From: a virus
Taxonomy: Duplodnaviria; Heunggongvirae; Uroviricota; Caudoviricetes
DNA length: 64,000 nt
IMG/VR virus record: IMGVR_UViG_3300030332_001481
Span: 67,486-131,485 of that record
Reading direction: 5' to 3' (one strand)
This document shows positions 50,451-63,468 of this stretch, one piece after another. Each line of letters opens with the position of its first letter. Position 1 is the stretch's first letter. The notes beneath the pieces are model-generated. The model saw only the letters and a list, made by a program, of their open reading frames with translations, was not told where the DNA came from and searched no databases. The translations under genes and the position numbers were made by a program.

Positions 50451-51167
50451 ATGGATCTCCCTACTCGCATGAAGCGCTACGAGAGCGCTAGTTCTACTGT
50501 GGTTACACCCCGAACCCCCGTCGTTGTACGTGTGGATGGGCGTTCCTTCTCCCGCTACACCGCACCCCTACGTAAGAGTGGGTTTGCCTCGCTTGAGTTC
50601 CGCACCGTCATGGCTGAGGTGGGGCTGGCAATGGCGAATCAGTGCTCTGATGTTGAGTGCGCCTTCATCCAGTCGGATGAGATCTCGCTCCTGTTCCATT
50701 TCTACAAGGATTTCGAGAGCCTTCCGTGGTTCGGCGGCAAGATCCAGAAGATCGCCTCGGTCACTGCGGGCATCGCTTCCAGTGAGTTCACTGCCCGAAG
50801 CCCCCAGATGTTTTCTGGGGAGATGAGGCCCGCTCACTTCGACTCACGGGTCTTTGTCCTTCCCGAGGCAGAGGTGGAGAACTACTTCATCTCTCGGTTC
50901 CGGGACTGTACTCGGAACTCCGTGCAGATGATGGCCCAGTTCAACTTCTCCCACAAGGAGCTGCAGGGCAAGTCCATCACCGAGCAGCAGGAGATGCTCC
51001 GCAACGCTGGCCGTCCCTGGGAAGCGCTAGACGCGTACCAGAAGTACGGGACTATGATCGTCAAGGACGCGGACACTCGTGAGTGGGTGTCTCACGCAGC
51101 AGGGCCCATCATGAATGACCCGCCCACGCGCAACGCCCTGTTCCAGCGGCTGCTAGCCACTACCTGA
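50451..51167 (+). CDS. Thg1-like protein (tRNA-His guanylyltransferase family, 3'-5' nucleotidyltransferase)
   Basis: VVVRVDGRSFSRYT near the N-terminus, SDEISLLF, then DSRVFVLP...ENYFISRFRDCTRNS; about 238 aa, Thg1-like size and motif order. Confidence 0.6.
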   Translation: MDLPTRMKRYESASSTVVTPRTPVVVRVDGRSFSRYTAPLRKSGFASLEFRTVMAEVGLAMANQCSDVECAFIQSDEISLLFHFYKDFESLPWFGGKIQKIASVTAGIASSEFTARSPQMFSGEMRPAHFDSRVFVLPEAEVENYFISRFRDCTRNSVQMMAQFNFSHKELQGKSITEQQEMLRNAGRPWEALDAYQKYGTMIVKDADTREWVSHAAGPIMNDPPTRNALFQRLLATT

Positions 51168-51174
51168 CAAAGAG

Positions 51175-51206
51175 AAAGGGGTCCTGGTTTCGTCAGGACC
51201 CCTTTC
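51175..51206 (+). terminator. terminator-like hairpin downstream of the Thg1-like gene
   Basis: 12-bp stem AAAGGGGTCCTG/CAGGACCCCTTT. Confidence 0.4.
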
Positions 51207-51290
51207 AAGCAAGTGTCGGGTAAGTTAGGGCCAAGCCCCCAGTAAGATCGTATTGATTAGATAAGCAAGATTTGCCCCCGAGAGATATTC

Positions 51291-51749
51291 ATGGCTGCAC
51301 GTAGAAGCGGAAAGACACCGGCCTCCCAAGGTGGTGGTTGGATACATTCACCCACAAGGTGGGCGATCTACCACCGAGATGACTTCCGCTGCGTCTACTG
51401 CGGGAAATGCGACTCCCTCACCCTGGACCACATCCATCCAGTGGAGGAGGGAGGGGACGACCACCCCTCAAACTTGGTGACTGCGTGCGGTCGCTGCAAT
51501 ACCAAGAAGGGTGCGAAATCCAAGGTGGAGTGGTACCGTGAGCTGCGAAGCCACGGCATTTGCACCGAGAAGGTTCGGCGCCGTATCAAGAGCCAGACGA
51601 AGAAGGCTCTCGACAGAGCCGTAGGACGACTACTCAGCACTCGGGGCGGGTCCCAGCCCAACCCTGGCCATACTAGAGGGCTCATCCCCGCCAAGACCGT
51701 CATCACTGTAACTACCAACCGTGAGCATACTAATGAACTCCAAGCCTGA
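51291..51749 (+). CDS. HNH endonuclease
   Basis: CVYCGKCDSLTLDHIHPVEEGGDDHPSNLVTACGRCNTKKG. Confidence 0.75.
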   Translation: MAARRSGKTPASQGGGWIHSPTRWAIYHRDDFRCVYCGKCDSLTLDHIHPVEEGGDDHPSNLVTACGRCNTKKGAKSKVEWYRELRSHGICTEKVRRRIKSQTKKALDRAVGRLLSTRGGSQPNPGHTRGLIPAKTVITVTTNREHTNELQA

Positions 51750-52449
51750 TCTCTTGTCCGGTCTCAGATTTATCGAGGACGACGACATCCCGCCACTCAT
51801 TCCCGGGCACCACATGAGTTCAACTCAATCATGGAAGATCACGAGTGACAATTCAAGTGGCAATTCGTGCCCTGCGTGCGACCTGGGCTTCGAGCCGGTA
51901 GCCGTCAGTTACCCCTCCATGCATGATCTGCAGTCTCTTCTAGATGAGTATCCCCGCCTCGTAGGAAAAGACTACGCGGTGATCGCGGGACCGTTCGGTA
52001 GCGGTTTCGCCACCTGCACCGACTTTCCTACCGGGGGTCTCGTCTCGCTGCTGGACGAGAACACTGACCCAGACGAAACGAATTGGGTGGAGTCCCTGGA
52101 AATCAATGATCCAGAGGGGGATTGCCTGACGGATGAGGATGAGGACGGAGAGGTCCTCCTTCAAAACGGCCTGTTCATGCTCACCTTGACGTCGTCTGCG
52201 ACCCAGTTTGGGTCCGTTTCTTTCGACACCACGATTCGCCGCCTCACCGACGAGGAGGCTGTCCGTGCTGCTGGTGGAGATATGTGGATCTCGCTGGAGG
52301 ATGAAGAATTTGCTCCCTTTGTGGAGCAGATGACGCAAGACCAGTACGCCATGTTCGTGAAGGAGTTCGCTCTGCTGTCCAATGAGGACGAGAGCTACGA
52401 GCACGTTCTGGCCTCCCTTCGGTCCATGATGCCCGAAGTGGAGGGGTAG
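51733..52449 (+). CDS. hypothetical acidic protein
   Basis: ATG-initiated ORF with a D/E-rich centre. Confidence 0.45.
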   Translation: MNSKPDLLSGLRFIEDDDIPPLIPGHHMSSTQSWKITSDNSSGNSCPACDLGFEPVAVSYPSMHDLQSLLDEYPRLVGKDYAVIAGPFGSGFATCTDFPTGGLVSLLDENTDPDETNWVESLEINDPEGDCLTDEDEDGEVLLQNGLFMLTLTSSATQFGSVSFDTTIRRLTDEEAVRAAGGDMWISLEDEEFAPFVEQMTQDQYAMFVKEFALLSNEDESYEHVLASLRSMMPEVEG

Positions 52450-52450
52450 G

Positions 52451-52678
52451 ATGCAGGCCAAGGCGCGTTTCTGCGGGACCAGCGGTGCCCCGAACTCGTG
52501 GTCTGGTCATGTCATCATCGAAGAAGACGACCGCTCAAAATCAATGACCCTGGAGGCTTGGGGTCATAGTTTGTTCGACGCGAGAGAGCAGCTTGAGGGC
52601 ATGCTCAAACACGTCGCCAGTCATCTGCGGCTCCTGGCCGCAGACGCTATTTCACTCGCTTACCGCGACGTGGCCTGA
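52451..52678 (+). CDS. hypothetical small protein
   Basis: 75-aa ORF. Confidence 0.4.
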   Translation: MQAKARFCGTSGAPNSWSGHVIIEEDDRSKSMTLEAWGHSLFDAREQLEGMLKHVASHLRLLAADAISLAYRDVA

Positions 52679-61801: not shown

Positions 61802-62157
61802 CTGACGCAGACGACGACTTCGAAGACGACGACTCTGACTTCGAGACAACACTCTGCCCCAGCTGCCATGGCTACGGGGACGATGACTGCCCTGAGTGTG
61901 ACGGTGAAGGTGTCGTATGTGACGAGTGCGGGAACTCCCAGTGTGTCTGGGAGCAGCAGTGTGTCATCGATGACATCAACGCCAGACTAGCTCGCGAAGA
62001 AGAAAGACTGGCCAAAATCAGAGCTGAGCACGAACGGCTCCAGGCTATCTCAGGACCCGCCTATCTACACTCTGGCGGCAGGTTGGCCGTGACCAACGCG
62101 AACGGTGGCGTCGATGTCTACCGCGTGTGTATCGAGGGCCCGTGGGAGAAGAAATAA
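61798..62157 (+). CDS. acidic protein (MTDADDD N-terminus) with a DnaJ-type CxxCxG zinc-finger-like cluster
   Basis: CPSCHGYGDDDCPECDGEGVVCDECG. Confidence 0.45.
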   Translation: MTDADDDFEDDDSDFETTLCPSCHGYGDDDCPECDGEGVVCDECGNSQCVWEQQCVIDDINARLAREEERLAKIRAEHERLQAISGPAYLHSGGRLAVTNANGGVDVYRVCIEGPWEKK

Positions 62158-62576
62158 TGAAGTCACAACTACCTTTGTCCGTGGATCAGCTGTCTGAATC
62201 AGCTTACGAGTTACTCATGGAGTACAGTCATAAGTTGTACTGTTCGATAATCGGCGAGACTCCTATACCTCCACCAGATTGGTTTCTGCAGGACGTTTAC
62301 GACGACCTACTGGCCTTTCGAGACGAATCGAGGGATTGTCTTGAAAAACTTGATAACCCCGCCGAGTTGCTTGCTGTGGCGAAGAGCTTCGGGGTCTTCA
62401 AGTACCAACCATCCCTATTACCGGAGGTTCTAGCGTCACCCACTAAGCGAGAACACCTTCGGGAAGTCATGATCGAAGAGTACCAAGAGACACTGAGTTA
62501 CTTTGTCGACAGTACCTCCATAGAGGGGTATTTGCGCATAGCGATCAATGACATTGAGAACTCGAAGAAGACCTGA
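62157..62576 (+). CDS. hypothetical protein
   Basis: 139-aa ORF. Confidence 0.45.
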   Translation: MKSQLPLSVDQLSESAYELLMEYSHKLYCSIIGETPIPPPDWFLQDVYDDLLAFRDESRDCLEKLDNPAELLAVAKSFGVFKYQPSLLPEVLASPTKREHLREVMIEEYQETLSYFVDSTSIEGYLRIAINDIENSKKT

Positions 62577-62726
62577 CTTATATGTCAGTCACGGGTTGAC
62601 ATGACTCGACACAGAGGTTACGGTGCCCCACATGCCTAGAACAGACAAGCACTAGCTCCGAGTACGTGGACCTCCTGTAGTCCCTGGTTCCAAGAAATCA
62701 GAGACAACAAGATACAGGAGAATACC

Positions 62727-63338
62727 ATGGAAAACGAAGAGCAGATTCGCAACAAGAAGCGCGAGATTCGCGCAGAGATCAAGAGCCTTGCGTCGGCCAT
62801 CAAGGCCGACCGAGATGAGAAGCGGGCAACGCCCAAGGGCCAGAGACAGGCCTGGGCCTATGGCTATGGATTAAGCGGAGACCCTTTCAAGGTCCGCCAC
62901 CTTCTCCTTGCGTTAGGGTACTTGAACGGTCGTTTCTACCACGACATCGAGCGTACCACCAGTGCAAAGCCCAGCATGTGGCAGCTCCTCAAGATCCTGG
63001 AGGATGTGGAAGTTACCAAGGAGGAACTCAACGCCTGGCTGTCTAACAGGCTCTACATCGTCGTGGCTGAGGACCTGAGGCCCGGCCAGAGGGCCGCCCA
63101 GGCCGTTCACGCGATGCAGGAGTTCTCCCATCGCCATCCCACGGTAGTCGCCAGGTGGTACGACAACAGCAACACGGTCGTGGTGCTGGTGGATCCCGAC
63201 CCAGAGCGTATGGTGATTGGCCTTTGGGAGACAGGGGACAAGTTCGCTGCATTCAACGAGCCAGATCTCGACGGTAGGACTACGGCACTGGCCATCCTTG
63301 GGCCGACGAAGAGTCTGGACCATTTGTCACTAGCTTGA
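62727..63338 (+). CDS. PTH2-family (archaeal/eukaryotic-type) peptidyl-tRNA hydrolase-like protein with an N-terminal extension
   Basis: LYIVVAEDLRPGQRAAQAVHAMQEF ... VVVLVDPD ... LDGRTTALAILGP matches the PTH2 core pattern. Confidence 0.55.
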   Translation: MENEEQIRNKKREIRAEIKSLASAIKADRDEKRATPKGQRQAWAYGYGLSGDPFKVRHLLLALGYLNGRFYHDIERTTSAKPSMWQLLKILEDVEVTKEELNAWLSNRLYIVVAEDLRPGQRAAQAVHAMQEFSHRHPTVVARWYDNSNTVVVLVDPDPERMVIGLWETGDKFAAFNEPDLDGRTTALAILGPTKSLDHLSLA

Positions 63339-63357
63339 CCTGACTTGACTTAGCTTG

Positions 63358-63394
63358 AAAAGGAGTCGGATTTAATCCCCGGCTCCTTTTCTTT
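63358..63394 (+). terminator. rho-independent terminator after the PTH2-like gene
   Basis: Stem AAAAGGAGTCGG/CCGGCTCCTTTT followed by TTTTCTTT. Confidence 0.55.
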
Positions 63395-63468
63395 GAGACC
63401 GTAGCTCAGATGGCAGAGCTGGGAATTCTAAATTCCTGTAAGCGAGGGTTCGAGCCCCTCCGGTCTCA
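63395..63468 (+). tRNA. suppressor tRNA with anticodon CUA (reads UAG amber)
   Basis: Acceptor GAGACCG/CGGTCTC, D arm GCTC-AGATGGC-AGAGC, anticodon stem GGGAA/TTCCT with loop TTCTAAA, T arm GAGGG-TTCGAGC-CCCTC. Confidence 0.6.

Follow-up and report, generated by a model that had tools for sequence, protein, structure and literature searches.

A divergent hydrolase gene of the peptidyl-tRNA hydrolase 2 (PTH2) type and a tRNA gene with a stop-reading anticodon form a conserved pair that recurs in the genomes of many unrelated phages, of actinomycetes and of Myxococcota, usually on the same strand and in the same order. Here we describe this pair in a stretch of 64,000 nucleotides (positions 67,486 to 131,485) of the Caudoviricetes record IMGVR_UViG_3300030332_001481, hereafter the window, whose own positions are used throughout. 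The pair closes the region 50451-63468, which had been predicted from the letters alone to be a block of co-oriented genes for tRNA and RNA end repair and translation rescue, capped by a suppressor tRNA. We find that this 13-kb region is a loose collection of known gene types whose members are independently distributed, and not a unit; the notion of a unit holds for the PTH2-like gene and the suppressor tRNA, which are linked more strongly than had been claimed. The best explanation, to which we assign a probability of roughly 0.6, is that translation-support genes are scattered through a region that is no unit, that the real unit consists of a fusion hydrolase and the neighbouring tRNA(CUA), and that this hydrolase would recycle peptidyl-tRNAs.

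The window is part of a marine jumbo phage of ~388 kb with a G+C content of ~56%, and the 388,512-bp contig ERZ907665 k127_208488, from the Tara Oceans marine metagenome, encodes radical SAM and PTH2-like proteins identical to its own at every residue. The 13-kb region has no relative at the nucleotide level in a megablast search of 50,697 phage records. Loci of the PTH2-like gene were collected with an alignment of a 12-sequence subset in which the motif FxEPDL[DGN][DGN]xL was required (EPDL[DGN][DGN]xLTA in the genome scan), and they therefore sample only part of the family. In 47 of 80 such loci from IMG/VR, ARAGORN detects a suppressor tRNA no more than 3 kb away from the PTH2-like gene. 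Dereplication of the viral set at 70% protein identity, with the window and the lineages from the phage database added, leaves 53 lineages, 38 of which possess a suppressor tRNA within 3 kb and 35 within 1 kb. In these 38 the median distance is 211 nt, the tRNA lies downstream in 32 and on the same strand in 36, and in about half of them, the window included, it is the only tRNA in the locus. The anticodons of the viral lineages are mostly CUA, with several UUA and one UCA. For example, a tRNA(CUA) is found at +250 nt from the PTH2-like gene in IkeLoa (cluster C1), at +130 nt in Myrna (cluster C2) and at +840 nt in LR756500, and a tRNA(UUA) at +135 nt in LR745208, a 485-kb uncultured phage, at -580 nt in Lak-B9 and at -690 nt in Lak-A1; in LR745208 and the Lak phages it is nearly the sole tRNA within 14 kb. 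The suppressor tRNAs are diverse in sequence, so that the link does not reflect one inherited tRNA gene. Rfam confirms the tRNAs of the paired loci independently of ARAGORN, and Rfam searches near the module, a permissive one included, returned tRNA only and no ribozyme of the hepatitis-delta-like or theta type.

The same arrangement recurs outside viruses. A scan of one genome per prokaryotic species yielded 60 cellular loci, mostly from Actinomycetes (Dactylosporangium, Nocardia, Actinomadura, Asanoa, Streptosporangiaceae), metagenome-assembled genomes (MAGs) of Myxococcota, and Planctomycetes. A tRNA(CUA) lies within 3 kb in 50 of them, downstream in 48, at a median of +379 nt and typically at +300 to +500 nt. 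As a control we used 80 viral loci of IMG/VR, each comprising a Thg1-like gene with ±10 kb around it (1.43 Mb altogether), a set that was also searched with every protein of the 13-kb region. These contain 141 tRNAs, a single one of which is a suppressor (locus L122), and this one directly follows the only PTH2-like gene of the set. Against this control the association is highly significant in viruses (Fisher's exact test, p = 7e-20) as well as in cells (p = 1e-26). A full-text literature search, with subscription journals outside its coverage, found no work linking PTH2 to suppressor tRNAs, and the pairing appears to be undescribed.

The tRNA of the window was recognised both by ARAGORN and by Rfam (63395-63468, 56.8 bits), as had been predicted, and folds into an ordinary cloverleaf with CUA at positions 34-36. 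It shares at most 72% identity with the other 25 window tRNAs, has no close paralogue among them, and stands more than 30 kb away from them. We thus regard it as a canonical tRNA with a stop-reading anticodon, of the nonsense-suppressor type, which is predicted to decode amber codons. The label tRNA-Pyl given by ARAGORN was rejected. Pyrrolysine tRNAs have a small D-loop, a variable loop of 3 nt and only one base between their acceptor and D stems; the window tRNA possesses a 5-nt variable loop, an 8-nt D-loop and two such bases, and so the label reflects the anticodon only. Among the window open reading frames (ORFs) scanned, none has a PylS-like Pfam match. The short interval between hydrolase stop and tRNA can form a hairpin followed by a T-run (Table 1), which a scan for consensus terminators did not call.

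The protein encoded upstream is a two-domain fusion, whose C-terminal domain has, according to homology and modelling, a divergent PTH2 alpha/beta fold. As a whole the protein (62727-63338) matches no Pfam family at E<=0.01, is marginally similar to human Bit1 (E 0.67) and retrieves itself alone in a word-indexed protein search, but an exhaustive HMMER search revealed 733 cluster representatives of its family. The profile of 81 homologues matches seven PTH2 structures, such as archaeal 2zv3 (4e-11) and human Bit1 (1e-7); 76 of the 81 match Pfam PTH2 at E<=0.01 (best 5.8e-12), with the window domain itself reaching 17.3 bits in PF01981, below the gathering score of 23. An AlphaFold2 model (pLDDT 91) has PTH2 structures as its top 12 Foldseek neighbours (E 3e-6 to 1e-3, target TM 0.58-0.69). 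The PTH2 assignment of the original prediction is thus borne out by three lines of evidence, although the whole-protein Pfam search fails. With canonical PTH2 (archaeal Pth2, human PTRH2/Bit1) the family shares, besides the fold, the motifs AQxxHA and LTA; it differs in that PGxQ replaces the GKGK loop and EPDL replaces DAGxT, whose Asp aligns with a Glu of EPD that hardly varies. The residues W, SN and EPD are invariant throughout the family and specific to it. The window domain shares 41-44% identity with the 'peptidyl tRNA hydrolase' proteins of cluster C mycobacteriophages.

The N-terminal part of the fusion corresponds to a small protein with the motif R(H)xxLAYAxLRGRxYxxIE, whose gene neighbours the PTH2-like gene in 25 further viral loci; it is on the same strand and, except in one group (L034-L036), lies immediately upstream. 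The protein also occurs in the two Myxococcota loci, and fusions of both domains are found among several database representatives. Besides this protein, an all-against-all ORF comparison within ±3 kb of the pair found no other widely conserved one. The model of the domain is all-helical with generic structural neighbours, and no Pfam, PHROG or PADLOC family matches it. In the actinomycete loci only the PTH2-like gene, a spacer and the tRNA are conserved, and the flanks vary by species, as would be expected of a small self-contained module. The spacer of these loci (L180-L233, ~3320-3640 of the loci) encodes a conserved helical protein of ~95 aa (…RWLQRKVWRQAAALDALNRRVVTQRFVLRTLDELGRSLTAEEYRAAR…) between the PTH2-like gene and the tRNA(CUA). 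Its identity with the phage helical family was considered and rejected: hhalign gives a probability of 0.6%, i.e. no detectable homology, and the two third partners cannot be called one family.

How could an esterase and a stop-reading tRNA cooperate? In the reading that we prefer, the tRNA would decode a stop codon and the PTH2-like esterase would act on the ester bond of tRNA species made by readthrough. Most likely it would recycle peptidyl-tRNAs that are dropped when suppression competes with the release factor, or after readthrough to mRNA ends, and a suppressor-expressing cell would thereby keep translating; guidance of the enzyme to the tRNA or the ribosome may be the task of the helical partner. 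Recycling is favoured because of the known chemistry of the PTH2 fold and because the co-orientation of the two genes suggests their co-expression.

Several observations weigh against this interpretation. The canonical GKGK loop, which we take to carry the catalytic lysine (presumably K18 in S. solfataricus, with D86 as the second catalytic residue), is replaced by PGxQ in the family and the Lys position is variable, so that the family may catalyse something other than peptidyl-tRNA hydrolysis. In 15 of the 53 viral lineages no suppressor tRNA is found within 3 kb, and the distant PTH2-like homologues (27-30% identity) of K64-1, AS-sw and XacN1 have no tRNA nearby. A group of G+C-rich viral loci (L045-L048, L050, L051, L025, L058 and L063; ~2600-3000) lacks a suppressor and carries, 3-221 nt upstream of the PTH2-like gene, a tRNA with an A34 anticodon (AAU, AAA or AAC, in loops like CUAAUGA). 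Finally, the sequence near the module shows no sign of TAG recoding: TAG ends 17 of the 56 genes called between ~43 and ~73 kb in window coordinates (the last ~9 kb lying beyond the end of the window), the standard code (code 11) gives densely packed genes, a TAG-terminated window gene has a homologue in a 423-kb contig (L098) that stops at the same position, and in cluster C phages TAG is an annotated stop near the module.

Two of these points have side aspects of their own. A34 anticodons of the kind mentioned are very unusual for bacteria, and the partners of the PTH2-like gene may as a class be tRNAs with no host counterpart, rather than suppressors alone. In a set of AT-rich IMG/VR loci (L028, L030, L037-L040) no tRNA is found within 3 kb, and a gene resembling class I aminoacyl-tRNA synthetases (LeuRS-looking) precedes the PTH2-like gene. 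As to recoding, ~73 kb of the 388-kb genome were visible, with the late genes lying outside. For this visible part, reassignment of TAG (genetic code 15) was rejected, as ORF lengths under alternative codes show no convincing merging and TAG is used as a stop; comparison of readthrough extensions with all fetched loci gave one informative case, that of the homologue stopping at the same place. No TAG recoding is thus detected near the module in the visible 73 kb. Lak phages, which carry the pair, are known to be TAG-recoded, and the pair accordingly occurs in recoded and apparently standard-code genomes alike. Within the 13-kb region a 111-aa gene (59384-59719, +) ends with TAG, and the ATG of a 116-aa gene (59720-60070, +) follows directly and in frame; readthrough by tRNA(CUA) would yield one fusion protein of 228 aa. 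No homologue of this gene pair was found in the fetched loci.

Alternatively, the PTH2-like enzyme could remove the amino acid, or an N-blocked amino acid, from the suppressor, so that absence or inhibition of the enzyme would be required to switch readthrough on. Such a timed or conditional code switch is a live alternative, if an unlikely one. It would account for the link of the gene to a class of stop-reading anticodons whatever the tRNA sequence, for the persistence of the pair in actinomycete chromosomes, where constitutive suppression should do harm, for the altered active-site loop and for the dedicated helical partner that is fused in the window; moreover, 'code change modules' that combine suppressor tRNAs with protein factors are known from phages. 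On the other hand, the shared strand and close spacing of the two genes suggest co-expression and not opposed timing, and no recoded genes were detected in the available sequence.

The original prediction held the whole 13-kb block to be one counter-defence system against host anticodon nucleases, with repair by the Thg1-like protein, ligase, RNase Z, NUDIX and radical SAM proteins, and ribosome rescue by PTH2 and the suppressor tRNA. We consider this improbable. In related genomes the genes are dispersed and not linked, an outcome that the prediction had itself named as refuting it: LR745208, the nearest relative and the sole phage record with four of the block genes, has them at ~7, 136, 197 and 425 kb, i.e. 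60-230 kb apart, among them the PTH2-like (7 kb, 44% identity to the window), Thg1-like (136 kb, 34%) and ligase-like (197 kb, 49%) genes, and in Lak megaphages the ligase-like and PTH2-like genes lie ~200 kb from each other. In none of the 80 Thg1-like loci does a tRNase Z or a ligase-like gene occur within 10 kb of the Thg1-like gene, and a PTH2-like and a (weak) radical SAM gene occur in one locus each. NUDIX is found in four, RtcB in two, RlaP and Pnkp in six each, and dihydrofolate reductase (DHFR), the commonest neighbour, in 13. Some synteny exists in L098 alone, which shares the Thg1-like gene, a 134-aa protein of unknown function, an R2K-clade ATP-grasp gene (kept near Thg1-like in this locus only) and NUDIX. 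In the window itself, no polynucleotide kinase/phosphatase is found in the block, the RlaP-family gene is 50 kb off, DHFR, HNH and ATP-grasp genes and many genes of unknown function intervene, and the radical SAM and NUDIX proteins lack a tRNA-specific family signal.

What speaks for a repair system is the company that Thg1-like genes keep elsewhere, and the published context, which predicts a tRNA-repair role. An association of Thg1 with polynucleotide kinase and RNA repair was reported by Anantharaman et al. 2010, and indeed Pnkp accompanies the Thg1-like gene in Kalah2, RtcB lies ~3 kb away in Goe8, and RlaP stands directly beside it in L133, L135 and L101. This linkage is visible in other loci but not in the block of the window. 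The spacing of ligase-like and PTH2-like genes in the window also has a parallel in XacN1, where ligase-like ORF354 is 3.3 kb from the distant PTH2-like ORF364. XacN1 is the only other genome in which the two are close together, and there (L013, 239851-244595) they share 5 kb with an NAD+ synthetase and a GatB/YqeY-like 'glutamyl-tRNA amidotransferase'. The 13-kb 'tRNA repair block' should not be carried into annotation as a system.

A toxin/antidote or conflict role of the pair is a further live alternative, which we regard as very improbable. Here the suppressor tRNA would corrupt termination, in phages that of the host and in bacteria that of invaders, as a weapon or an addiction element, and the PTH2-like enzyme would protect the carrier. 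The compact two- or three-gene module of the actinomycetes, which lies in variable flanks and is all that is conserved across 50 loci, fits this idea, as does its occurrence in phages and cellular genomes. It is at odds with the 30% of called genes that the window phage ends here with TAG, since such a weapon would harm the phage itself, and PADLOC yields nothing meaningful for the module beyond one mad2 match of 14.6 bits. Least credible of all, and already disfavoured, is a purely structural adjacency (transcript 3'-end or processing signal, integration target, shared tRNA arrays) with no functional link, to which the position of cluster C and some IMG/VR pairs inside large tRNA arrays and the hairpin with T-run between gene and tRNA in the window would lend themselves, but which would not select the anticodon and agrees neither with the suppressor being the sole tRNA in about half of the lineages that have one nor with the single suppressor, beside a PTH2-like gene, among the 141 tRNAs of the control.

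The features of the window are listed in Table 1.

Table 1. Positions of the features discussed in the text, with gene identities as assigned by homology.
Feature	Position	Strand	Remarks
RlaP-family Pol-beta nucleotidyltransferase (RNA repair)	502..1434	+	Pfam RlaP 4e-24; outside the block
tRNA array 1, 17 tRNA genes	13377..17831	-	no encoded 3' CCA; interrupted by a TnpB gene
tRNA array 2, 8 tRNA genes	29247..30956	+	no encoded 3' CCA
Thg1-like protein (bacterial TLP type), 238 aa	50451..51167	+	same gene as called on the 388-kb contig
HNH endonuclease	51291..51749	+	Pfam HNH 1.3e-12
Radical SAM enzyme, 471 aa	52699..54114	+	Pfam Radical_SAM 1.4e-10, residues 126-201 only
tRNase Z, short form, 278 aa	54704..55540	+	MBL fold, motif HFHLDH
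R2K-clade ATP-grasp protein	57276..58052	+	Pfam R2K_2 1.6e-7; absent from the original prediction
Minimal RNA-ligase-like nucleotidyltransferase, 201 aa	58423..59028	+	Pfam RNA_ligase, PHROG 548
NUDIX hydrolase, generic MutT/RppH-like	60304..60729	+	Pfam NUDIX 1.5e-19
Dihydrofolate reductase	61028..61801	+	Pfam DHFR_1 3e-38; belongs to nucleotide metabolism rather than RNA repair
Helical domain of the fusion protein (N-terminal, residues 1-105)	62727..63041	+	separate small gene beside PTH2-like in other phages
PTH2-fold domain (divergent peptidyl-tRNA-hydrolase-2-like)	63042..63338	+	C-terminal part of the fusion gene 62727-63338
Hairpin and T-run between hydrolase stop and tRNA	63360..63393	+	GGAGTCGG-atttaat-CCCCGGCTCC-ttttctt, read from the sequence
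tRNA, anticodon CUA (amber suppressor type)	63394..63469	+	ARAGORN; 55 nt after the hydrolase gene

The co-orientation noted in the original prediction is correct, every gene that it listed in 50451-63468 lying on the plus strand, but the tRNA(CUA) does not cap a block. Gene calls on the 388-kb contig show dense, mostly co-oriented genes at least from 43 to 73 kb in window coordinates, which cross both borders of the region and run on for at least 10 kb downstream of the tRNA. The region is thus part of a long co-oriented arm of auxiliary genes, in which independent translation-support genes stand among genes of nucleotide metabolism and of unknown function. It also holds an HNH endonuclease gene, probably a mobile insertion outside any tRNA function, the R2K ATP-grasp and DHFR genes, and more than ten genes of unknown function, none of which figured in the original prediction. 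A thymidylate synthase gene (44403-45431, +) lies 16 kb from that of DHFR. One of the few opposite-strand genes flanking the block (49130-50362, -) encodes a Cys-rich protein of 410 aa with CxxDxDCDG repeats, a weak MopE-like match and a C-terminal VWA/integrin-beta-like region. Repeats of this type are typical of Myxococcota; the best cellular relatives of the PTH2-like protein come from Myxococcota MAGs, and the two observations together are a possible hint at the host. Further upstream (4542-9020, +) are genes for a DnaJ-domain protein, a DHHA1-domain protein (5948-6769; its upstream neighbour 5213-5917 shares its frame and ends with TAG) and an AAA ATPase of 752 aa; a 39%-identical homologue of the DHH-like protein is encoded ~4 kb downstream of the PTH2-like pair in LR745208 (L006, 11702-12532).

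The proposal that all members of the block act on tRNA or RNA ends stands, by homology, for the Thg1-like, tRNase Z, ligase-like and PTH2-like proteins and the suppressor tRNA, and finds no support in the radical SAM and NUDIX proteins. The Thg1-like protein belongs, judging from its sequence, to the bacterial Thg1-like protein (TLP) branch of the Thg1 superfamily. It had been called a Thg1-like 3'-5' nucleotidyltransferase, and it matches Pfam Thg1 (4e-24, 85 bits against a cut-off of 29.2) and PHROG 4717 'tRNA-His guanylyltransferase' (1.5e-61). The nearest solved structure is B. thuringiensis TLP 4kgk (3.6e-34), followed at a distance by human Thg1 3otb (7e-6), and a single-protein locus search of IMG/VR found no relatives. 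Residues D29, D76 and E77 (human Thg1 numbering), which we take to be the three metal-binding carboxylates of the Thg1 palm domain, are invariant in an alignment with two phage homologues. The HINNL motif is gone, DCTRNSV being read where human Thg1 has DCHINNL; HINNLYN is presumably the motif by which Thg1 recognises the tRNA-His anticodon. By homology to the B. thuringiensis enzyme, the protein would, as a 3'-5' polymerase, repair 5'-truncated tRNAs or add G-1. Typical bacterial tRNA-His has a G-1:C73 pair; that of the phage (16899-16970, -) has an A73 discriminator and a genomically encoded G at -1. In other loci the states are mixed (C73 with encoded G-1, A73 with encoded G-1, and C73 without G-1, the last beside the Thg1-like gene in L173 and in IkeLoa, L005), and the A73/G-1 state could bear on the role of the Thg1-like enzyme.

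Sequence comparison likewise identifies the metallo-beta-lactamase (MBL) fold protein, predicted to be an RNase Z-like hydrolase, as a genuine tRNase Z: it matches, over nearly its full length, rice RNase ZS1 (7xgt) at 1.8e-41 and T. maritima tRNase Z (1ww1) at 4.8e-14, and its NCBIfam matches are RNase Z models apart from a weak one to PhnP. It is a divergent member, given the 71.6 bits that it reaches in TIGR02651, whose curated cut-off is 293. An anti-Pycsar identity of the Apyc1 type was rejected, with similarity to Apyc1 at only 0.022 and that to tRNase Z ~40 orders of magnitude stronger. Among phages, homologues of the enzyme are exceptional (one other record of the 50,697), and a single-protein locus search of IMG/VR gave no relatives. 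ARAGORN counts 26 tRNA genes in the window, short of the ~30 that had been estimated, and in none of them is the 3' CCA encoded. Precursors of such CCA-less tRNAs are matured at the 3' end by RNase Z before CCA is added. Because all 26 genes lack CCA, the enzyme is most simply seen as a maturation factor for the phage's own tRNAs, whose 3' trailers it would cut. In the scanned window ORFs we found no CCA-adding enzyme, and the Pol-beta nucleotidyltransferase (502-1434) is of the RlaP type. Inside the larger tRNA array lies a gene of the TnpB / IS605 OrfB type (15104-16324, -; OrfB_IS605 6.5e-31, Cas12f1-like TNB 2.4e-23).

The minimal ligase-like nucleotidyltransferase of the original prediction is supported by PHROG 548 'RNA ligase' (1.5e-11) and by motifs I (KLDG), III (FFELFG), IV (EGVVVK) and V (FKVKS), which were read in the translation; the alignment to Pfam RNA_ligase covers profile positions 2-171 of 171 and scores 26.4 bits, just under the cut-off of 27. 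With 201 aa the protein has no room for a second domain comparable to the accessory domains of Rnl1-5. Homologues were found only in huge phages (LR745208, XacN1 ORF354, Lak), and no Protein Data Bank sequence matches at E<=1. The radical SAM enzyme and the NUDIX hydrolase belong to the families named in the prediction, but both are generic, and neither has a detectable tie to tRNA in its Pfam and NCBIfam family signals. The former possesses the CxxxCxxC motif as CNFGCDFC, has NCBIfam and PADLOC matches to the core that are weak and far below the family cut-offs, and has phage homologues annotated 'Fe-S oxidoreductase'; a pVip identity, suggested by PADLOC, was rejected since the matches are confined to the radical SAM core. 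All NCBIfam matches of the NUDIX protein are likewise far below the cut-offs.

The gene content of the region is not new, contrary to what had been supposed. Thg1, PTH2, RlaP, ligases, NUDIX and tRNAs have been described as an RNA-repair and ribosome-rescue complement of jumbo phages (Iyer 2021, PMC7824862), and XacN1 (PMC5852040) and Atu_ph07 (PMC6102473) possess Thg1, a peptidyl-tRNA hydrolase, one or more suppressor tRNAs and 33-56 tRNAs in all. Like the window, these papers combine many tRNAs with Thg1, PTH2, RlaP, ligase(s), NUDIX and a suppressor tRNA, and they share the rationale of countering attacks on translation. They differ in presenting genome-wide inventories and not a linked block, and the adjacency of PTH2 and suppressor tRNA is not mentioned; the word 'suppressor' occurs 0 times in Iyer 2021 (PMC7824862). 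To this toolkit the window adds a bona fide tRNase Z, while no Pnkp or CCA-adding enzyme was seen in it. With the T4 enzymes Pnkp and Rnl1, which act against PrrC, the window has in common a ligase-like nucleotidyltransferase and the concept of phage repair of host-broken tRNA. By contrast, its block has no kinase/phosphatase, and its ligase-like protein is a nucleotidyltransferase domain alone, does not adjoin an end-healing enzyme, and has no detectable sequence similarity to solved ligases.

Closer to the pair itself are the code change modules of Borges et al. 2021/2022 (bioRxiv 10.1101/2021.08.26.457843), in which a suppressor tRNA and an aminoacyl-tRNA synthetase as well as a release factor lie upstream of recoded lysis genes. 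In both cases a suppressor tRNA is linked to protein factors that serve decoding or termination, and the module itself keeps to the standard code. In our pair, however, the partner is a PTH2-like esterase with or without the helical protein, no aminoacyl-tRNA synthetase or release factor is conserved within ±3 kb, no recoding is detected in the available sequence, and the pair is also found in standard-code cluster C phages and bacterial chromosomes; Borges et al. never mention a hydrolase. The 'peptidyl tRNA hydrolase' of cluster C phages (Bxz1 gp154 family) resembles that of the window in being followed by a tRNA(CUA), and sits in a tRNA/tmRNA array. It consists of a single domain of ~120 aa, upstream of which no helical partner was detected, whereas that of the window is a fusion, and its array is a dense one of ~25 tRNAs, whereas the suppressor of the window is isolated.

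Taken together, these observations tentatively suggest, at a little under even odds, a widespread translation module consisting of a PTH2-fold esterase with an altered loop, a stop-reading tRNA and often a helical partner, which would allow controlled readthrough, with the esterase either buffering or gating the suppressor. Its range would extend from jumbo and mega phages, cluster C mycobacteriophages and uncultured phages to the chromosomes of Actinomycetes, Myxococcota and Planctomycetes. If this is true, the module would add to release factors and aminoacyl-tRNA synthetases a third type of 'code-change' hardware, and the suppressor tRNAs that stand as orphans in standard-code phages, for instance XacN1 and Bxz1, would gain a functional context. 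Suppressor tRNAs in phages without visible recoding had lacked an explanation (the authors of the XacN1 genome, PMC5852040, found no target genes for theirs), and a conserved protein partner turns them into a testable system. Knockouts, amber-reporter experiments and esterase assays are feasible, since the pair is present in cluster C mycobacteriophages, which are genetically tractable, and in actinomycetes that have been cultured (Nocardia, Dactylosporangium, Actinomadura). Should the enzyme tune readthrough, or make it tolerable, the pair would bear on the evolution of stop-codon reassignment, and it may supply parts for engineered amber suppression.

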